In this document: piece after piece, positions 4,672 to 62,705 of the stretch | Numbering within the stretch: position 1 is the stretch's first letter | Layout: each line of letters begins with the position of its first letter | Assembly: GCF_024502345.1 (NCBI RefSeq) | Contig: NZ_JALDNN010000001.1 | Length of the DNA stretch: 64,000 nt | Direction: 5' to 3' (one strand) | DNA from: Escherichia coli | Lineage (GTDB): Bacteria; Pseudomonadota; Gammaproteobacteria; Enterobacterales; Enterobacteriaceae | Translations under genes and position numbers: made by a program | The notes under the pieces: generated by a model | Seen by the model: the letters and a program-made list of their open reading frames with translations, nothing else | The model's database searches: none | What the model was told of the DNA's origin: nothing

Positions 4672-4748
4672 TGGCGCGCCCTGCAGGATTCGAACCTGCG
4701 GCCCACGACTTAGAAGGTCGTTGCTCTATCCAACTGAGCTAAGGGCGC
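4672..4748 (-). tRNA. argU: tRNA-Arg (anticodon UCU)
   Basis: Reverse complement reads GCGCCCTTAGCTCAGTTGGATAGAGCAACGACCTTCTAAGTCGTGGGCCGCAGGTTCGAATCCTGCAGGGCGCGCCA (77 nt, anticodon TCT, CCA end). Confidence 0.95.
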
Positions 4749-7468: not shown

Positions 7469-7681
7469 ATGGCGACATTTTCTTTAGGTAAACATCCGCA
7501 CGTTGAGCTGTGCGATTTGCTGAAACTGGAAGGCTGGAGCGAAAGCGGCGCGCAGGCGAAAATCGCGATTGCCGAAGGCCAGGTGAAAGTCGACGGTGCG
7601 GTTGAAACGCGCAAACGCTGCAAAATCGTCGCCGGTCAGACAGTGAGTTTTGCAGGTCACAGCGTACAGGTTGTTGCCTGA
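7469..7681 (+). CDS. ybcJ: S4-like RNA-binding protein YbcJ
   Basis: 70 aa, MATFSLGKHPHVELCDLLKLEGW...; start 2 nt after the folD stop. Confidence 0.85.
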   Translation: MATFSLGKHPHVELCDLLKLEGWSESGAQAKIAIAEGQVKVDGAVETRKRCKIVAGQTVSFAGHSVQVVA

Positions 7682-7788
7682 TCCCTTTCCCGGCCTGTAT
7701 CAACAGGCCGGTTCTCTTTTCAGACTTTTGCCCTCTACGCCCCGTTCATCCATGCTGATAGCATCGACATTTTGCCGAAGTGACCATC

Positions 7789-8310
7789 ATGCCAACCGTT
7801 ATTACGCACGCCGCCGTTCCCCTATGCATTGGTTTAGGGTTGGGTTCGAAAGTCATCCCTCCGCGTCTGTTATTTGCCGGAATCATCCTGGCGATGCTGC
7901 CCGACGCCGACGTATTGTCGTTTAAATTTGGCGTTGCTTACGGCAATGTTTTTGGTCATCGCGGGTTTACCCATTCGCTGGTGTTTGCGTTTGTTGTCCC
8001 GCTGTTATGTGTGCTGATTGGACGCCGATGGTTCAGGGCTGGGCTGATTCGCTGCTGGCTGTTTTTAACCGTCTCGTTGCTATCGCACAGCATGCTGGAT
8101 TCGGTAACCACTGGCGGTAAGGGTGTTGGCTGGCTGTGGCCGTGGTCAGATGAACGCTTTTTCGCTCCCTGGCAGGTGATTAAAGTCGCGCCGTTTGCAT
8201 TGTCTCGTTACACCACAGCGTACGGGCATCAGGTGATTATTTCTGAATTGATGTGGGTGTGGTTGCCGGGGATGCTACTGATGGGAATGCTGTGGTGGCG
8301 CAGACGATAA
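7789..8310 (+). CDS. ybcI: Inner-membrane protein YbcI
   Basis: 173 aa from MPTVITHAAVPLCIGLGL...; hydrophobic. Confidence 0.85.
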   Translation: MPTVITHAAVPLCIGLGLGSKVIPPRLLFAGIILAMLPDADVLSFKFGVAYGNVFGHRGFTHSLVFAFVVPLLCVLIGRRWFRAGLIRCWLFLTVSLLSHSMLDSVTTGGKGVGWLWPWSDERFFAPWQVIKVAPFALSRYTTAYGHQVIISELMWVWLPGMLLMGMLWWRRR

Positions 8311-21025: not shown

Positions 21026-21067
21026 GTCATACCACTCGCCTGATTATTTTTAGCTATGTTGGATTTT

Positions 21068-21094
21068 GCCACGGTTTATACCGTGGCTTTTTTT
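21068..21094 (+). terminator. Rho-independent terminator after allE
   Basis: GCCACGG-tttata-CCGTGGC followed by TTTTTTT. Confidence 0.6.
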
Positions 21095-21110
21095 GTAGTA
21101 AATTCAGGTA

Positions 21111-35199: not shown

Positions 35200-35580
35200 G
35201 TGTCGAATCCTTATCCAAAACAAGAGGTAACTCTCATGCTTCATACTGCCAATCCCGTCATCAAACACAAAGCCGGTTTGCTCAATCTGGCTGAAGAACT
35301 CAGCAACGTATCAAAAGCCTGTAAAATCATGGGCGTTTCGCGTGATACGTTTTATCGTTACCGCGAACTGGTCGCTGAAGGCGGTGTGGATGCGCAGATT
35401 AATCGTAGTCGCCGCGCTCCTAACCTTAAGAACCGTACCGATGAGGCAACTGAACAGGCTGTTGTTGATTACGCCGTCGCTTTCCCGACACATGGTCAGC
35501 ACCGGGCCAGCAACGAGCTGCGTAAACAGGGGGGTTTTTATCTCCGACAGTGGTGTCCGTTCTGTCTGGTTACTCCATAA
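35200..35580 (+). pseudogene. ybbD: IS481-family-like transposase, N-terminal fragment
   Basis: 126-aa ORF with HTH ...KACKIMGVSRDTFYRYRELVAEGGVDAQINRSRRAPNLKNRTDEATEQAVVDYAVAFPTHGQHRASNELRKQG...; the DDE catalytic domain is missing. Confidence 0.6.
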
Positions 35581-35620
35581 CCTTGAGAATCTCAAAAGAC
35601 GATACTGAACAAATTTTATC

Positions 35621-35756
35621 AGGTGACGTTCCGTAAAAAGTTGTATGGAGTTCTCGATGCAGTCGGCGCGACTATCAGTACCCCCGCTGAACCCTGGACT
35701 ATCGGGCCGCCGTACTGGGGCATGTCACCCTGGCGTGCCGCTGGTTTTCCGCTAAT
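35621..35756 (-). pseudogene. ylbH: Orphan Rhs N-terminal fragment
   Basis: Reads [26 protein letters not shown]..., about 80% nucleotide identity to the first ~95 nt of the rhs gene at 40806, but with ATT where that gene has ATG. Confidence 0.7.
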
Positions 35757-36122
35757 GGTTTATTTCCTCTTTCTTTCCCGGCAAGAATTTATTTTAATCC
35801 GGAAGGATTATTTATTTTCAGATAGGGACTCACATTAAACACGTAACATTTTAATTAATGCATGGCTGAATATGTATTACACAATGTCAGATATCGTAAA
35901 AGACCAGTGCAATTCTATGTAAACTCTCTGACTGTTCATTTTATTTGTTGTTTCAGGGTCGGAACTCACCCTCAATAAACAACTGAATACGAGTAGATAT
36001 TCATCGTCTGAGCTATATGGCTTTACACAATAGCCGACATGTCTTTTCTCAGTCAGGAATTTTACTTTTCCTCACTACGAAGTTGACGACTTCGATATGG
36101 GATAGACTCTTAATTCAAGCAA

Positions 36123-36584
36123 TTACTCTGCACAAGCATCAGGCAATCCAGCTCCAATATTTGTTATAAAATAATGCGTAACATTAATTTCACCAACAAA
36201 AAAAAGGTTTACACCATCCCCTTGCCCTGGTATCTTACCATATTTACACCACACTTTTTTTGTATCTGGATCATTCTTTGATACGATTTTCGCCACTTGT
36301 TCCCTGGCCCTCACTGTCAATGTTTTCTTAAACCTACCCCCATCATCATTTGTTAGGGAAAAATAAGAAAAAAAATAATCATCTTCTACATTTGTGTATA
36401 TTGATATATCCACCGCTACGTGCGGAAAAAAATCTGGGAGCCATGTAAAAACTCCATCATTTTCTGGTATTGCCATATAGTTTATGTAATGTTTACTTAC
36501 AAGAGATTCATCTTTGTATAAATAAAGATAAGTAATTACGCATAAAACAACAATGATTATAATAGCAAAAATAAATATTATCAT
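36123..36584 (-). CDS. Putative Rhs immunity protein (N-terminal transmembrane helix)
   Basis: AT-rich ORF just downstream of the rhs stop; MIIFIFAIIIIVVLCVITYLYLY...; the longer version starting at 36614 would overlap rhs by 20 nt. Confidence 0.6.
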   Translation of the reverse strand: MIIFIFAIIIIVVLCVITYLYLYKDESLVSKHYINYMAIPENDGVFTWLPDFFPHVAVDISIYTNVEDDYFFSYFSLTNDDGGRFKKTLTVRAREQVAKIVSKNDPDTKKVWCKYGKIPGQGDGVNLFFVGEINVTHYFITNIGAGLPDACAE

Positions 36585-36594
36585 CTTTGATAGA

Positions 36595-39500
36595 TTACTT
36601 GAGATAGCCAGCATCTTGTAAAGCCTTTATCGTTTTTTTATGCTCTGGATTAATATAATCACTACATCTATCTGAGCAATCTGTTGTTGATGGACATGTC
36701 AACCCATGGTCATTTACAGCCAAGTCTTTTTTATTATCTTCAATCATTTCAGAATGGGATAGCTTTACTTTTCTGCCGTACATACCGAACAGATTTAACC
36801 CGTAATCTCTAATCTCTTTTTCATAACCCAGCCCTTTCGCCGATCGGCTAACACCAGCGTCATTTAATTTAGACACTCGACAAAATGCCATACAATGAAA
36901 AAATTGATCAGTCCCACCTAAATTTAATCTCTTCATATCTTCATAAGTATCAGATAATATATCCCATGCTCTTTGATGGTTTAGTTGATCTTTTCTTCTT
37001 ATTAGCGCTACATCTGCGGGACTTAACCCTAATGGATCAATACCATTCACCGGATTCAGCGGATACGCATACAGACTCCATCCCCCCTCCAGCCCTATCG
37101 GGTCCTGAGTGATATACCGCCCCTGCAACGGATCGTAGTACCGGTTCCGGTTGTAGTACAGCCCCGACTCCTTATCATACTGCTGCCCCGGCAGCCGGTA
37201 CGGCTGGTGCAGGTGATGCGGGTTCTCCTCATTAAGCTGGTTGCCCCATTCATCATATTCCGCGCTCCACGCCGTATTGCCGTCTTCACTGATAAGCGCC
37301 AGCGGCAGGCCCCGGTGGTCACAGTGATAAAGATGTATTTTTCGCTCAGGCAAATAAACCGGCTCTATCTGTGCCGCCAGCCGCTCCACCGTCAGCCCGC
37401 ACTGCGCAAGCCACTGGCGGCTTTCACTGCTCACGCAGTTTGCCCGGATTTCCCCCTCCAGCCTGTCCAGCAGCCCCACCAGTTCAGCCGGGAACACCAC
37501 ACCGTGACCGTCTTCGCTCCCTTCCTGCTGTAACTTCTCCGCCAGGCTGCGGCACTGCGCTTTCTCCCGTTCACCGTTGTCTGTTTCGATGCGGATGAGC
37601 GGCGCGAAGCTCCCCGGCAGGTAGACCGTCTGGATTCGCGTGGTATCTGTCTGTACCGTCGTCAGGCGGTCTCCGTCCCAGCCGTACCATGTCATCTCCG
37701 GTTTACGCGACAGCGACATCCACCCCGTCAGGTCACGCTCCCGCCGCCATACCCGTTTCGCCATTCGCCGTCCCAGCGGGTCGTAGAGGTAGCGGCTCTC
37801 GACCAGTGGCTCGCCATGCTGTATCCGCGTGTGGAACACCAGGCGGTGCTGGCTGTCGTAGTGGTAGTGGTGGGTCCGCTCGTCGTCCGTCCGTATCACA
37901 CCCGTCGGGATGCGGTCCGTCTTCTCCGTCAGTCTGCCGTATTCATCATAGTGGTAAACATAGTGCGCATCCTCTGCGATGCGGTTATCCGGCCACGCCG
38001 TGAGCGTGCTGTCCGGGTGTAGCTCCGGGTCCGGCAGGCGGTTTCCCGCCGGGTCGGTGGCATACGGGATGCGGATGTCCAGGTCCGGTGCGAGGGTGCG
38101 CACGCTCTCCAGCCTGCCCGTGGCACTGTAGCCGTATTCCCGCGTCTGTCGCGGACCGCTGATGCGCACCAGGTCGCCGTTGTCATTCCACCCGTAGTCA
38201 CGGTCATACACCAGGCTGTTCAGGTGCTGGCTCTGTAACTGGCCTGCGGGGGTGTATGTGCTGGTCAGTTCATATGCGGCATTACTGCCTGCCATGCTGC
38301 CAAAGCTGCGCACCGTCTCCCGGTGCAGGCGGTCGCGCGTGTACTCCAGCAGCGGCGTGTCGCCGAGCTTCATGCCCGCCAGATAACCGCTGCCATACGT
38401 CAGCCACTCCACCGGCGGCAGGCTGTCCGGCGTGACGCGGTTTGCCAGCCCCTGTTCGTTGTAGGCGTGCGTTGTCTCATGCTGCCACAGCAGTTCCCCC
38501 GTCTCCGGGTTCTCCACCGTCTGGCGTTCGCCGGTCAGGCGGCCTTTATCGTCATAGCCGTAGTGGACCGACACGCGGTGGCCTTCACTGGTATGGCTGA
38601 GGGTGGTTAACCACCCGTGCTCATCATACTGCCACTGCTCTGCCGGGTCGCCGTTCACCGTCCGGTGCGTGATGCGGTCCGACGCATCGTAGTGCCAGAG
38701 GGTGATAAGCCCCTCATCCTCACTCTGCGTGAGTTTTCCGGTCAGGTCATAATGATAACGTTGCGTCCGCCCGTCAAAGCCGCCCTGCTGTACCAGCCGG
38801 TCCAGCGCATCGTAGCTGAAGTCGCTGTGACTGCCGTTCTCGTTAGTCAGACTGATGACACGTCCGGCAGCATCGTACTCCATACTGCGCGTCAGCCCGC
38901 CCTGCGTGGTGCTGACCGCCTTTCCCCACGCATCGTACTGTGTCTCGCTCCGGTTGCCGTCCGGGGTGATAACGGCAGTCAGGTCGCCTGCGGCGTTGTA
39001 CTCATACTGCGTTTCACGGCCCTGTGCGTCTTTCACCGAGGTTAACCGGCCACGGTTGTCATAGTGGCGGTAAAGGCTGATACCTTCCTCGCGGTGAACC
39101 GCCGTCATCTGGCCGAAGCGGTCGTATTCATAGCGGGTCTGGTAGCCCGAGCAGTCAGTGAACGCCAGCAACTGCCCGTAGCGGCTCCACGTCATCTGCC
39201 GGGTGCTGCCCGTCGCATCCGTTGTCGTCGCCGGTAACTCACTGTGCGCGTCATCGTAGCGGTAGCGTACTGTCTCCCCGCTGCGCGATGTCTCCGATAC
39301 CAGCCTGCCCGGTTCATCATATTCCCGGCGGCTCTCCAGCCCGTCCGGGTACACCACCGCCGTCAGCTGGTTCCCGTCGTTATAGTAAAATTTCGTCTCC
39401 CGCCCGTCCGGTGTGGTGATGTCCGTGATATCGCCGGACACCACATTCAGACCGTACTCTGTCCGCCGTCCCGCCGCGTCCGTCTGCGCCGTGAGCCTTC

Positions 39501-40806
39501 CTGCCGCGTCATACCCGCTGCGCGTGACGCTGCCGTCCGCCAGTTCTTTTTTCACCACCCGTTTCAGCCCGGCCCCGCCTTCTGTATGCAGCACCTCACG
39601 CCGGTTCAGGCTGTCGGTGACGGTGATGCGGTCCTGCTCATAAAGATAGCGGTAGCTTAACCCTGCCGGGTTCAGTTGCTCCACCACCCGCCCCGTATCG
39701 TCGTAGCGGTAGCGCATCTCCGGCCTGCCTGCATAACGGTGCCCCACCATCCGGCCCCGGTATTTATCATCGTAAGTAAAGTGGCGCATCTGCGTACCGC
39801 TGCGGTCATACACCGCCGCCAGCTCACCGCGTGGCGTCCAGTCGTAGCACACCAGTGGCGCGGCAGGTAAATTTTCCGGGTATTCCGGGTCGTGCATCAG
39901 CCACACCGCCGAAAGACGGATACCGCTGTCAGCGCCGTATTCCGTACCGGGCAGTGTGTCGGGGAAGGAAGGAGCTGAGAGAGGGCGGGGACTGTCAGGG
40001 GAAGATAACGAAGCGGTGTGCGGTTTACGGGCCTCTTCCGCCCGCTGTGCCTGTGTGGTCAGTACCAGACGGAACTCCCGCCCGGCACCGTCCGTCACGC
40101 CGGTGATTTCCCCGGCCAGGTCACCGGCGGCCTCACGCCGGTACGCCAGCGTCCGCCCGAAGCGGTCCGCCATCCCGGTAAGCACCCGGTACGGCGGCAG
40201 CGGCGCTGGCAGTAAGTCCTCAGCACCCGGCACCCGCTCAGACCACCCCAGTATCCACCACGGCCCCTGTGCGCTGTTGGTCGCCAGGTAAAGATGCGGG
40301 CTTAACCGGATATCCGGTGGCAGCGACGCCCACAGCCGTGCCAGCGTGTGGCCGTCCGGCTGCGCTGCCTTACCGCCACGCACCAGCCACATTGACTCAC
40401 TGCGGCTGTACACCGCCTCCCCCGGCAGCAGCGGCTCAAAGTGAATGCTCCGCCCGCCGTTGTCGTTGAGTATCAGTGCATCATCGCGTATCTGTAAGCG
40501 GATATCAGAAGGCGCTTTCCAGCCGGGGCCGAAAACGCCCACCGGTGCAGGCGTCTTCGTCCGGTAGCTGCTGTAGGTGCGGGAGAGAATGAACGGCAGC
40601 GGGCCGGGCAGCGCAAGGTCCGTCTCGCCGGGCTGTACTTTTGCACCGAGCAGCGGGTTCACCGGGTTGCCCGAGGTCATCCCGCCCGGACACACCGAGC
40701 ACGCCACGCCAGTTGGCGCGCCAATTCTTACACCTGCCGAACCCTGGACAATGGGACCGCCATACTGAGTCATATCTCCCTGACGCGCCGCTGGTTTTCC
40801 GCTCAT
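36595..40806 (-). CDS. rhsD: Rhs-family polymorphic toxin (YD-repeat protein)
   Basis: 1403 aa; N-terminus [25 protein letters not shown]; many YD repeats; DPxGL motif ([12 protein letters not shown]) followed by a 141-aa AT-rich C-terminal tip (about 36598-37020). Locus equated to rhsD by position. Confidence 0.9.
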
Positions 40807-41234
40807 ATAAAGTGCCCTTTTAGTTATTGTTCATATCCCTGTGTTAGCAACAAAAAAAATAAAATGACACACAAGACCAGCTAATGTATTTATATATTTT
40901 TCACATAAACTTATTTGTTCTCAATCAACAACAACTGTTATTACAGGTCACTTTCAATATTTTATTAAACTAAAATTTTTAGCACAGATGAATTCATCAT
41001 CAACAAATTCACTATATGGATAATATCCATTCAACGCATATGATTTATGATTTTATTAGTCTGAGTTATTTTTGTAGGGCTATATTTAAAATTATTAAAC
41101 TCCACCGATTCAGATTAATATCGCAATAGAAAGATAGGAAATCACCAATTCAATAACATCATCAATGAAACATATTGTAGAATTAATTTAAACAAGGCGT
41201 TCCATTCAACCAGAACGCCCCTTATTTACTCTCA

Positions 41235-43649
41235 TCACCCCGCAAACTGCCTGAACAGCGCCTTACCCTTAACCAGTCGCGCACCCAGCCAGCCGCCGAA
41301 AAGCGACAGCAGCAGCGCACCGCTGCACGGCAGAACAATCCACAATCGCCAGTCTGGCTCCCACGGGAAATCAAACACTTTCGCCTGCAACACTGCCAGT
41401 GCCGTTTCCGCACCAATTGCGGCCACCAGGCCGGAAACAAACCCAAGCATGACGAACTCACACCACAATGTCGTGCGCAGCAGTTTTTTCCCCGCACCGA
41501 GTGTGCGCCATACCACCAGCTCCTGATGACGCTGGCGCATTCCCACCTGCACCTGTGCCAGCAACAGCAACATACCGCAGGCGGTGACCAGCACCACCAT
41601 CACCTCCAGCGCCCGACTTACCTGCTCCAGCACCTGACCGACCTGTTTTAAAATCGCGCCAATATCTAACAGGCTAATGGTCGGGAACTGGCGGTTGAGT
41701 TGCGTCAACATGCCGTTGCCATTCTCCCAGCGGAAACTGGTAAGCCAGCTCTGCGGTTGCCCGTCTAATGCCCCTTCCGGGAAAATAAAATAGAAATTAG
41801 GCCGCAGACTTTCCCAGTCCACTTTGCGCAGGCTGGTCACTTTAGCGCGGAACTCCTGGGTATCGCCCATAAAAGTCACGGTATCACCGAGGGCAACGTT
41901 TAAGCGTTTCGCCAGCCCCTCTTCCATCGACACTTCATCGGCTTTTGGCGGCCAGTTACCGGCGACAATCGGATTATGATCGGGCCGCGTATTTTGCCAG
42001 GTAAGATTGAGTTCGCGATTAAGCGCCTCATCTTCATTACCTTCTGTCGGCTTATCGTTAATCGCCGTCAGCCGCGCCCGCACTACCGGATAAAATGATT
42101 CCGGGACTATATGATGTTCCGCGAGGAACGCTTTTAGCGGTGCTACCTGTTCTGTGGCGATGTTAATTAAAAAGTAGTTCGGGCTTTCTGGCGGTAGCTG
42201 CTGCTGCCAGCGGTCGAGCAGATCGCCACGCAATACCAGCAACAGCGCCAGCAGCATAAAGGAGAGCGAAAATGCCGAAAGCTGGCTTAACGTTGACCAC
42301 GGCTGACGTAACAGGCGGCTAACCGCCAGGCGCAAAGGTAGCGATTTCAGCGTCATGCGGCGAAGTACATTCAGCTGCATCCAGCCCAGCACACCGCACA
42401 GCAAAGCCAGTACTACCGCGCCCGCCAGCACCGCCCAAAGCAGCATGCTGCCACCCATTAATCCGGCGAGCAGCAGCACAACCACCACACTGACAATCGG
42501 CAGATAAAACTTCAGCGGCCAGACGTTCGCTACCACATCATTATGTAATACGCGTAAAGGCTGCGTTGCCAGCAACAAGCGGTATGGTCGTAGCCCCACC
42601 AGCAGCGAGATGACCGTCATGGTGCCAAGCGCCCACAGCCACGGCCAGAGGCTGGCTGGCGGTAGTGCAGCAGGCAGAACGGGCTTGAGCAGCACCATCA
42701 ACACGTTTTCGAACAACAGGCCTATGGCCCCACCGGTAACGGCTGAAAGCGTCAGCACCATCAACCACTGACCGACGATTAGCTTACGCAGTTGCGCTCG
42801 CCCTGCCCCCAGCGTTTTGAGGATCGCCACCAGATCGTAGCGACTGCGACAGTAATGATTCATCGCTACCGCCACCGCTGCCACTGCCAGCAGCAAGGTC
42901 AGAAGCGCCGAAAGCAGCAGGAACTGTTGCGAGCGTTCCATCGATCGCCCCAGCGCGCCTTCGTCCTGTTCCAGACCGTACCAGCGTTGTTCGGGTTTAA
43001 GCTGAGGTAACAACCATTTCTCATAGCCGTCGAGCTGGTTCTCGTTGCCGCCGAATTTATAACGCCAGGTGACCCGACTCCCCGGCTGCACGGCTCCGGT
43101 TTTATCGACATCCGCCAGATTCATCATCAGACGCGGAGCCATCTGGAAGGGGTTAAAACCGGAATCCGGTTCCTGAATCACTTCTCCGGCAATCCGCAAG
43201 GTGGCATCGCCCACGTCAATGGTGTCGCCCGTTTTCAGGTTAAGCAGTGCCATCAGGCGTGGGGCCAGCAATACGCTGCCCGCCTGCGGTTTCAGGCCAG
43301 GGGGATTAGTTTGCAGATCGCCATACATCGGGTAGATATCATCCACCGCTTTGACGTTCGCCAGCTGCGGTGTGTCGCCTGCAAAGGTCATTGTGGCGAA
43401 AGTCAGCTGCTTGCCGACTTTCAGGCCGCGCTTTTGCGCTTCCTCCAGCCACGCTTGCGGCACTTCGCGTGAACTGCGCAACGCCCGATCGCCCGCCATA
43501 AACTCACGGCTTTGCTGGCTTAAGCCCTTCTCCATGCGATCGCTGATATTGCCCAGCGCCAGCACGCAGGCCACCGCCAGGCTTAGCGCCAGCCAGACAA
43601 TTAATAGCGACGGCGAACGCCATTCGCGCCAGAACCAACGTGCAATCAT
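41235..43649 (-). CDS. ybbP: ABC transporter permease (FtsX-like, two-domain)
   Basis: 804 aa, MIARWFWREWRSPSLLIVWLALSLAVACVLAL... Confidence 0.9.
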   Translation of the reverse strand: MIARWFWREWRSPSLLIVWLALSLAVACVLALGNISDRMEKGLSQQSREFMAGDRALRSSREVPQAWLEEAQKRGLKVGKQLTFATMTFAGDTPQLANVKAVDDIYPMYGDLQTNPPGLKPQAGSVLLAPRLMALLNLKTGDTIDVGDATLRIAGEVIQEPDSGFNPFQMAPRLMMNLADVDKTGAVQPGSRVTWRYKFGGNENQLDGYEKWLLPQLKPEQRWYGLEQDEGALGRSMERSQQFLLLSALLTLLLAVAAVAVAMNHYCRSRYDLVAILKTLGAGRAQLRKLIVGQWLMVLTLSAVTGGAIGLLFENVLMVLLKPVLPAALPPASLWPWLWALGTMTVISLLVGLRPYRLLLATQPLRVLHNDVVANVWPLKFYLPIVSVVVVLLLAGLMGGSMLLWAVLAGAVVLALLCGVLGWMQLNVLRRMTLKSLPLRLAVSRLLRQPWSTLSQLSAFSLSFMLLALLLVLRGDLLDRWQQQLPPESPNYFLINIATEQVAPLKAFLAEHHIVPESFYPVVRARLTAINDKPTEGNEDEALNRELNLTWQNTRPDHNPIVAGNWPPKADEVSMEEGLAKRLNVALGDTVTFMGDTQEFRAKVTSLRKVDWESLRPNFYFIFPEGALDGQPQSWLTSFRWENGNGMLTQLNRQFPTISLLDIGAILKQVGQVLEQVSRALEVMVVLVTACGMLLLLAQVQVGMRQRHQELVVWRTLGAGKKLLRTTLWCEFVMLGFVSGLVAAIGAETALAVLQAKVFDFPWEPDWRLWIVLPCSGALLLSLFGGWLGARLVKGKALFRQFAG

Positions 43650-56059: not shown

Positions 56060-56854
56060 ATGGATCTGTTGTACCGGGTAAAAACGCTTTGGGCCGCGCT
56101 GCGCGGTAATCATTACACCTGGCCTGCCATCGATATCACCCTTCCCGGCAATCGCCATTTTCATCTGATTGGCAGTATTCATATGGGTAGCCACGATATG
56201 GCTCCCCTGCCCACCCGTTTGCTCAAAAAGCTCAAAAACGCCGATGCGCTGATCGTCGAGGCTGATGTTTCCACCAGCGATACGCCTTTTGCTAATTTGC
56301 CTGCCTGCGAGGCGCTGGAAGAGCGCATTAGCGAGGAGCAACTCCAAAACCTGCAGCATATTAGCCAGGAGATGGGCATTTCTCCCTCACTCTTTTCTAC
56401 CCAACCGCTGTGGCAAATCGCGATGGTTCTTCAGGCGACGCAGGCGCAAAAACTGGGGCTGCGGGCAGAATACGGTATCGATTACCAGCTATTGCAGGCG
56501 GCGAAGCAACAACATAAACCCGTGATTGAACTGGAAGGGGCTGAAAACCAGATTGCCATGTTGCTCCAGCTCCCTGACAAAGGACTGGCGCTGCTGGACG
56601 ATACGCTGACCCACTGGCATACCAACGCACGGTTGCTGCAACAAATGATGAGCTGGTGGCTGAATGCACCTCCGCAAAATAATGATATAACGCTGCCCAA
56701 TACGTTCAGTCAGTCGCTGTACGATGTGCTGATGCATCAGCGAAATCTCGCCTGGCGGGATAAACTGTATGCTATGCAGCCAGGGCACTATGTGGTCGCG
56801 GTCGGTGCACTACACCTGTATGGAGAAGGGAATTTGCCGCAAATGTTGCGCTAA
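56060..56854 (+). CDS. ybaP: TraB-family protein
   Basis: 264 aa, MDLLYRVKTLWAALRGNHYTWPAIDITLPGNRHFHLIGSIHMG... Confidence 0.85.
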   Translation: MDLLYRVKTLWAALRGNHYTWPAIDITLPGNRHFHLIGSIHMGSHDMAPLPTRLLKKLKNADALIVEADVSTSDTPFANLPACEALEERISEEQLQNLQHISQEMGISPSLFSTQPLWQIAMVLQATQAQKLGLRAEYGIDYQLLQAAKQQHKPVIELEGAENQIAMLLQLPDKGLALLDDTLTHWHTNARLLQQMMSWWLNAPPQNNDITLPNTFSQSLYDVLMHQRNLAWRDKLYAMQPGHYVVAVGALHLYGEGNLPQMLR

Positions 56855-57042
56855 AAAAATGGCCAATATCGCTATTGGCCCGTCAAAGAGGAATTTCATT
56901 TTTTTATTATTATGCCGTCACTTTAAGCGACGGTGTAACTCGATTGTCGCTCAATCTCACCATCCTGCCAATACTCTTAGGCAAGATGACTCTTTTTTTT
57001 GGACCGCCATCAGGCGTATGCTTGCTTCGTTTTTTTGTTTAA

Positions 57043-62584: not shown

Positions 62585-62705
62585 GTTGCCGGATGTAAAA
62601 TATGAAAAATATGTAGGCATGATAAGACGCGCCAGCGTCGCATCAGGCATCGAGAGCCAAATGCCAGATGCGGCGTGAACGCCTTATCTGGCCTACGAAC
62701 CGACG
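62585..62705. repeat. REP element cluster
   Basis: GATAAGACGCGCCAGCGTCGCATCAGGC and GCCAGATGCGGCGTGAACGCCTTATCTGGCCTAC units between convergent ybaL and gsk. Confidence 0.7.

Follow-up and report, generated by a model that had tools for sequence, protein, structure and literature searches.

A serum amyloid A-like tip on an Escherichia coli Rhs protein and its candidate immunity protein YbbD at the rhsD locus

We found that the C-terminal tip of an Rhs protein from Escherichia coli is, as judged from sequence profiles and a predicted structure, a bacterial serum amyloid A (SAA) domain belonging to the 'prok-SAA' family in the SAA-Wnt clade of the Lipocone superfamily. The gene lies at the rhsD locus in a 64,000-nucleotide stretch of contig NZ_JALDNN010000001.1 (assembly GCF_024502345.1; the whole stretch is called the window below), and is followed directly by a small gene, ybbD, encoding a candidate immunity protein. 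Both genes already have names in K-12 (ylbH, also called rhsH, and ybbD) and their layout is textbook Rhs biology, so that the cassette is a common E. coli module. What is new is the link between an SAA homologue, the residues it has kept and a candidate immunity protein predicted to face the periplasm.

The Lipocone superfamily, which includes Wnt, SAA, TelC, PTDSS1/2 and VanZ, was defined by Burroughs, Nicastro and Aravind (10.1101/2025.01.14.632903; eLife 2025, PMC12419801). In that computational study, prok-SAA was named among several Lipocone families recruited as polymorphic-toxin tips. The superfamily was predicted to attack phosphate-linked lipid head groups, with PTDSS1/2 and TelC as the experimental anchors, and its ancestral active site was inferred to consist of a His on helix 2, a Glu on helix 3 and an Asp on helix 4, to which the SAA-Wnt clade adds an sNxxGR motif (PMC12419801). 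The supplementary text of the paper makes no mention of E. coli, ylbH or ybbD. We found no experimental work on any prok-SAA toxin in the literature, and for the function of ylbH and ybbD we found only transposon insertion sequencing and H-NS observations, with none on toxicity of the tip.

Assignment of the Rhs tip to the SAA family

The first-pass annotation of the window had described the tip as belonging to no family that could be named. When the tip was scanned against Pfam, one significant match was found, to SAA (PF00277; independent E-value 3.6e-4 to 4e-4, 21 bits, model positions 9-84 of 102), while the NCBIfam scan of the tip returned no match. Taken alone the Pfam match is marginal, and four further tests were run.

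When 1.84 billion representative proteins were searched exhaustively with phmmer, using the tip as query, 92 relatives were found at E<=1e-3, most of which are C-termini of RHS/YD proteins or small standalone proteins. Pfam SAA was matched at <=1e-3 by 28 of the 39 relatives scanned singly (best 2e-26), and some of the bacterial relatives terminate in ...GLPEKY or ...GLPAEY, like human SAA1. A profile built from 39 bacterial sequences only was then compared with the PDB; its matches to solved SAA chains had E-values of 1.1e-16 to 4e-13, and no other entry scored below E 0.2. The PDB search is convincing only with this family profile, as the single tip sequence gave only sub-threshold SAA matches (E 0.3-1.5).

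The AlphaFold2 (AF2) model of the tip, calculated from the family alignment, had a predicted local distance difference test score (pLDDT) of 96.2 and a predicted template modelling score (pTM) of 0.88. It consists of four long helices, a short helix at residues 116-123 and a further helix at residues 129-137. In a Foldseek search of the PDB with this model, the top 7 matches were human SAA1 and mouse SAA3 (probability 1.0, TM-score 0.68-0.73 normalised to SAA), and every non-SAA match had a probability below 0.12. The modelled helices and the Foldseek matches agree with the four-helix cone and short fifth helix of SAA and prok-SAA, a family in which helix 5 lies packed between helices 2 and 4. 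The first-pass annotation had called for structure prediction of both proteins; this suggests an SAA fold for the tip, and the downstream protein was recognised as YbbD_head. The tip is therefore not nameless but assignable to the bacterial SAA/prok-SAA family by Pfam, profile, AF2 and Foldseek, and SAA is not a housekeeping domain, a match to which would have spoken against a toxin tip.

We examined which residues are shared within this family. In the alignment that includes human SAA1, D39, H43, E70, D100 and N104 (tip numbering) are invariant, and D73, D96 and G107 are nearly so. Among the bacterial members, C44, C48, C116 and C120 are additionally invariant. The conserved positions are all kept in every close variant of the tip, down to 58% identity. 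The tip thus contains the polar site described for prok-SAA, with H43, E70, D73 as the acidic residue at the helix 3 end, and N104-x-x-G107; the Arg of sNxxGR is replaced by Leu108 (VNDHGL), as in many bacterial members. The tip is also predicted to be soluble like other SAA domains, with a maximum 19-residue Kyte-Doolittle mean of 0.55 and no hydrophobic segment.

The four cysteines form a twin CxxxC pattern, with C44/C48 on helix 2 and C116/C120 on helix 5 (window ~36664-36894, minus strand), and the two pairs probably tie these helices together by disulfides. The pattern is invariant in bacterial SAA-like domains and missing in animal SAA, and suggests folding in an oxidising compartment. 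The word 'disulfide' is absent from the main text of the Lipocone paper (PMC12419801).

YbbD as the candidate immunity protein

Directly downstream of the tip, the first-pass annotation had noted an AT-rich open reading frame (ORF) with an N-terminal transmembrane helix. This description held: the ORF encodes 163 aa with a GC content of 0.329 and a helix predicted near its N-terminus, and its start overlaps the rhs stop by 20 nt. We identified it as an intact ybbD. NCBIfam NF011298 matches YbbD over its whole length (1-163/163, 380 bits). The Pfam family YbbD_head (PF26610) is precomputed on cluster representatives that are 92-96% identical to the YbbD of the window; our direct Pfam-A scan of YbbD gave no match with a Pfam copy that does not include PF26610. 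A head motif, WLPxFxPxSxxxI, is common to YbbD_head proteins including YbbD.

The AF2 model of YbbD (pLDDT 85.6) includes the predicted membrane helix. Lys10 stands before this single anchor and acidic residues follow it, and there are lipoprotein versions among related proteins. On this basis, the folded domain of YbbD is predicted to face the periplasm. The immunity proteins of Lipocone toxins were described as transmembrane proteins or lipoproteins (PMC12419801).

To determine how consistently such genes accompany SAA tips, we examined seven other loci (L004-L010), each encoding an Rhs/YD protein with an SAA-type tip. In 7/7 loci, the next ORF overlaps the tip gene or starts within ~10 nt of it. 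These ORFs encode 143-173 aa; those of L004, L006, L007 and L009 have a transmembrane helix at the N-terminus, and those of L005, L008 and L010 a lipobox. The loci annotated with YbbD_head are L007, L008 (weak), L009 and L010, and a hidden Markov model (HMM) of Pfam-supported YbbD_head members, with the anchor removed, detected L004 at 20 bits (E 3e-6). Thus, in L004 and L007-L010, a homologue supported by PF26610 or by the HMM directly follows the tip, which shows the genetic linkage of YbbD_head with SAA tips. For L005 and L006, YbbD_head homology was not supported: with the anchor-removed HMM, L005 stayed at the level of shuffled sequences and L006 rose only marginally above it.

Some of these loci had further features. 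L007 (CP029992.1, 3517158-3523300) is an orphan toxin/immunity array with an Ntox16 fragment, DUF6714, a 380-aa Rhs fragment with SAA tip and YbbD_head, and TseH with Imm58; in this array the SAA/YbbD pair moves as one cassette among others. The lipoprotein ORFs after the SAA-tipped Rhs in L005 (3143-3625, plus strand) and L010 (~7620-8110, plus strand) are not called in the source annotation. The L010 ORF (P0126) is labelled 'uncultured Methanoregula' in nr, probably through a binning or taxonomy artefact.

Core and tip of the Rhs protein

The Rhs ORF is encoded on the minus strand (36595..40806, 1403 aa, from the ORF list and translation), which the first-pass annotation did not state. That annotation had described a GC-rich ORF, dense in YD repeats up to a DPxGL motif, that switches to an AT-rich tip of 141 residues. 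Our results agree: both peptides quoted in it are present in the translation, and 142 aa follow DPLGL, or 141 if the Ser is left out. NCBIfam RHS_core ('RHS element core protein', 1261 positions) matches residues 1-1261/1261 with 2717 bits, Rhs_assc_core matches residues 1184-1261, and YD_repeat_2x is also matched. Pfam finds DUF6531 at residues 46-123 and 13 RHS repeats. The protein therefore has the YD/RHS repeat shell and the repeat-associated core of Rhs polymorphic toxins.

The last position of the NCBIfam core model falls exactly on residue 1261, the final L of DPLGL, which sets the boundary between core and tip without recourse to composition. In Enterobacteriaceae, PxxxxDPxGL is accepted as the motif that delimits the Rhs C-terminal region (PMC3150448). 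Here the motif closes the core model, and a different tip stands behind the same motif in K-12 rhsD. We found that the GC content, and that of third codon positions (GC3), are 0.63/0.75 in the core, 0.366/0.27 in the tip and 0.329/0.245 in the downstream ORF, with a GC content of 0.52 for the whole window. The fall lies within ~30 nt of the DPLGL motif. A change in composition that coincides so closely with the edge of a protein model is no chance feature. Taken together, the YD-repeat core, the DPxGL boundary, the variable AT-rich tip and the tightly coupled small downstream gene make up the polymorphic-toxin layout, as had been proposed. The coordinates are given in Table 1.

Table 1. Features of the Rhs-YbbD cassette and its surroundings (positions in the window)
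Feature	Position	Strand	Evidence
Rhs core, residues 1-1261: DUF6531, YD/RHS repeats, RHS repeat-associated core domain, DPLGL end	37024..40806	-	ORF, NCBIfam, Pfam
DPLGL, core/tip boundary motif; second DPxGL of 'DPIGL-x18-DPLGL'	37024-37038	-	sequence, end of core model
C-terminal tip, residues 1262-1403, 142 aa (141 without Ser), as K-12 YlbH/RhsH tip	36598..37023	-	translation
SAA-homology (prok-SAA Lipocone) domain, tip residues ~17-123	36655..36975	-	Pfam, profile, AF2, Foldseek
rhs stop codon	36595-36597	-	sequence
ybbD, intact, 163 aa: candidate immunity protein, membrane anchor and periplasmic alpha/beta domain (predicted), Pfam YbbD_head	36123..36614	-	ORF, NCBIfam, PF26610, AF2
Predicted transmembrane helix of YbbD, residues ~6-32	36519..36599	-	Kyte-Doolittle 19-residue max 3.37, AF2 helix 6-32
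Rhs N-terminus remnant, equivalent of K-12 ylbI pseudogene	35662..35756	-	79% identity to first 95 nt of K-12 rhsD, collinear with ylbI

Exchange of the cassette at the rhsD locus

The window contains the E. coli rhsD locus, flanked by allS, mnmH/selU and a ylbG pseudogene on one side and by ybbP/ybbA on the other. When window positions 35500-37300 were compared with ylbH(rhsH)-ybbD-ylbI of K-12 MG1655, all 1801 nt aligned with 98.9% nucleotide identity, and the tip protein was identical to the translation of K-12 ylbH. The two loci share the tip, the downstream ORF, the ylbI remnant and the flanking ylbG, selU and allS genes. However, K-12 rhsD bears another tip together with ybbC, its ylbH is an orphan downstream with only ~250 nt of core, and its ybbD is frameshifted. 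In the window, by contrast, the ylbH-type tip ends a full-length 1403-aa Rhs protein and ybbD is intact.

The first-pass annotation had regarded the tip/immunity pair as the variable, exchanged part of the element and had suggested a comparison with other strains at this locus. The comparison with K-12 shows this directly, with a different tip and ybbC on rhsD and the pair of the window kept as the orphan ylbH-ybbD. This is in line with the view that Rhs loci evolve by 'C-terminal displacement' and keep orphan modules (Jackson 2009, Poole 2011; PMC3150448).

The remnant of an Rhs N-terminus (95 nt) lies ~370 nt downstream of ybbD, is annotated as a 96-nt pseudogene in NZ_LR536431.1, and is the scar of an earlier rhs rearrangement. 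NZ_LR536431.1 (L001, 3771825-3781689) is the only genome with a 100% match to the cassette. Its Rhs gene is truncated at the N-terminus, where a Mu-like prophage (transposase, AAA ATPase, Gam, gp16) is inserted. The Rhs gene of the window is intact, so the window derives from another strain or state.

We then surveyed the distribution of the cassette. Of 5426 complete E. coli genomes, 2728 contain the 1.7-kb cassette at >=80% coverage. A query of 577 nt of core and 223 nt of tip reached >=80% coverage in 965 genomes. About one third of the carriers (965 vs 2728) thus have the tip on a long core, a fraction that is an upper bound for full-length fusions.

Delivery and expression

The Rhs protein is presumably delivered by a type VI secretion system (T6SS), though it has no full PAAR domain and no neighbouring vgrG. 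The Pfam PAAR_motif match had an E-value of only 0.27 (residues 3-20, model positions 52-69 of 70), which does not support a full domain; the N-terminus 'KPAARQGD...' is similar to a PAAR domain in its last strand pair only, and DUF6531 then follows. No vgrG or eagR adjoins rhs at this locus, where the upstream genes are ybbP/ybbA, and a distant T6SS is possible. The rhs locus itself therefore has neither of the linkages, PAAR or vgrG/eagR, that mark delivery by a T6SS. 'Neighbourless' E. coli Rhs proteins are considered relatives of T6SS2-linked Rhs (review PMC6730261).

In K-12, the AT-rich ybbC-rhsH-ybbD stretch is bound by H-NS/StpA, which explains its lack of transposon insertions (PMC9948719); an earlier reading of the same gap was that ybbD might be essential (10.1101/237842). 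Since H-NS/StpA covers this homologous stretch, H-NS repression is likely in the window too. The leader between ybbP and rhs (40807-41234, ~430 nt) is also extremely AT-rich, like the tip region, with a GC content of ~0.28-0.45 in 200-nt windows, so the GC-rich core is bordered at both ends by likely H-NS-binding DNA.

A promoter and terminator scan of 35600-41300 gave counts not above shuffled controls and was uninformative. The Rfam and tRNA scans of the window found nothing relevant to the cassette. Elsewhere in the window, Rfam and ARAGORN identified IS009 RNA, tRNA-Arg(tct), STnc480, sroB and naRNA4 (at 1226-1426, 4672-4748, 21032-21098, 56853-56936 and 62616-62693), which are ordinary E. 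coli features.

Proposed mechanism and alternative explanations

Beyond the anatomy of the cassette, the family membership of both proteins, their conserved linkage and the tip exchange at the locus, we infer toxicity of the tip, its site of action and substrate, its neutralisation and its delivery. Our favoured reading, which we hold tentatively and by analogy with other systems, is that the prok-SAA tip attacks an envelope lipid head group in the periplasm of the target cell and that YbbD protects the producer. The YD-repeat shell would enclose the 142-aa tip and release it by cleavage at DPLGL, as known from other Rhs proteins. The tip would be a soluble helical domain whose putative active site draws on three helices: helix 2 with His43, helix 3 with Glu70 and Asp73, and helix 4 with Asp96, Asp100 and Asn104-x-x-Gly107. 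Working in the periplasm of the target cell, it would act on an envelope lipid, cleaving or exchanging its phosphate-linked head group. The most plausible target would be an undecaprenyl-(pyro)phosphate-linked precursor, for example lipid II, as with TelC. Wall or envelope synthesis would be blocked as a result. YbbD, translated from a start that overlaps the rhs stop, would be held by its anchor in the inner membrane, extend its alpha/beta domain into the periplasm and shield the producer by binding the tip there.

Periplasmic action is proposed because the immunity proteins appear to face outward, the four invariant cysteines lie in CxxxC pairs, and the tip has no hydrophobic segment. CxxxC pairs on helices 2 and 5 would be typical of disulfide-stapled helices, which are expected only in an oxidising compartment. 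Head-group chemistry is the best-supported activity because of the homology with the Lipocone model.

The closest competing explanation keeps the same pair and the same periplasmic site, and takes the tip as a non-enzymatic, OmpA-type binder. The His/Glu/Asp groove would then be a binding surface for which YbbD competes. The precedent is BteO, a T6SS effector of Bacteroides fragilis GA3 (PDB 9UU0; PMC12541434), claimed to be non-enzymatic. We consider this explanation unlikely, about half as probable as enzymatic attack, because the link between tip and BteO is at the level of fold only (the SAA family profile had no sequence link to BteO at E<=10), YbbD is unlike the OmpA C-domain, and the assays that were described for BteO do not include lipid-linked substrates.

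In BteO, the residues that toxicity requires (H144, H167/E168, D187, D191) have a spacing like that of H43...E70...D96xxxD100 in the SAA/Lipocone groove. BteO, although published as non-enzymatic, may be an unrecognised Lipocone-type effector.

It is somewhat less probable again that the cassette is genuine but silent in this strain, as an H-NS-repressed, undeliverable relic of Rhs tip shuffling in which ybbD is kept mainly against toxin-deploying neighbours. The K-12 module, an orphan with a frameshifted ybbD in a stretch under H-NS/StpA and free of transposon insertions, fits such a history, and about two thirds of the carrier genomes appear to have no long core. The missing vgrG neighbour, the lack of a significant PAAR domain and a T6SS that is possibly absent would agree with it. 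In the window, however, neither ORF is broken, the tip lies in frame at the end of a complete Rhs protein, and all residues invariant in the family are kept. The kinship of neighbourless Rhs proteins with T6SS2-linked Rhs also weighs against a relic, and silence in laboratory conditions would be compatible with induced use.

A cytoplasm-acting toxin (a nuclease or a His43-Cys44 protease) or a membrane pore-former, for which the SAA likeness would say nothing about activity, is improbable. Most of the E. coli Rhs tips characterised so far are nucleases (PMC6730261), a weak Pfam Peptidase_C7 match covers tip residues 44-87 (E 0.02), and H43 and C44 are invariant in bacterial members. However, the family's immunity proteins have a membrane anchor or are lipoproteins and are predicted to face outward, no nuclease or protease family was matched in Pfam, NCBIfam or the PDB, and the low hydrophobicity of the tip argues against a pore. 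Paired CxxxC motifs on two helices are more in keeping with structural disulfides than with a nucleophile, and the H/E/D/N residues are kept in animal SAA, which has no cysteines. A His-Cys cysteine protease was rejected, as only 1 of the 39 relatives matched Peptidase_C7, the Cys is missing in animal SAA, and the cysteines occur in paired CxxxC.

Mammalian SAA binds E. coli OmpA. A doubtful but broader idea is that OmpA-family proteins or envelope precursors are recognised by an ancient module, the His/Glu/Asp groove of the SAA fold, with one mechanism for YlbH-type tips, BteO and mammalian SAA. If it were true, ylbH/ybbD would reveal what SAA does biochemically to bacteria and would settle whether BteO-type effectors are lipid-head-group enzymes.

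The cassette encodes a clear SAA homologue, with every residue shared from bacteria to human, in about half of complete E. coli genomes. The ylbH/ybbD pair is thus a tractable E. coli test case for the predicted biochemistry of SAA and of the SAA-Wnt branch of the Lipocone superfamily. A result for the tip would help in choosing between enzymatic attack and the OmpA binding that BteO brings into view, and a tip that proved inactive or cytoplasmic would weaken the family-level Lipocone prediction.

Comparison with known systems

The prok-SAA family is the closest known system. It shares with the modelled tip the four-helix core and short fifth helix, His on helix 2, Glu on helix 3, Asn-x-x-Gly on helix 4 and solubility, as well as the setting as an Rhs toxin tip next to a membrane-anchored immunity partner, which is a candidate here. 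The tip differs from the published description in having no Arg in sNxxGR and an extra C-terminal helix (129-137). No cysteine is conserved in the YbbD family, in contrast to the four that are absolutely conserved in the Imm-SAA domain as described.

Animal SAA (SAA1/SAA3; PDB 4IP8, 4Q5G, 6PXZ) has a fold homologous to that modelled for the tip, and has D39, H43, E70, D100 and N104 in common with it. It is a secreted apolipoprotein and acute-phase protein without cysteines. Unlike animal SAA, the tip bears the twin CxxxC pairs, is joined to an Rhs shell and has a candidate immunity gene as its partner.

TelC and TipC, the lipid II phosphatase toxin and immunity protein of the Streptococcus intermedius type VII secretion system, belong to the same superfamily according to Burroughs et al. 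and are the template for the proposed chemistry. TelC cleaves lipid II and is active only outside the cytoplasm (PMC12419801), and its immunity protein is found at the membrane or within the periplasm. TelC differs from the tip in its Lipocone clade and its secretion system, and no direct sequence or structure match was found.

BteO, unlike the Rhs tip, is a standalone effector with a transmembrane anchor. Its immunity protein BtiO is an OmpA-C mimic (PMC12541434), a resemblance that YbbD does not share.

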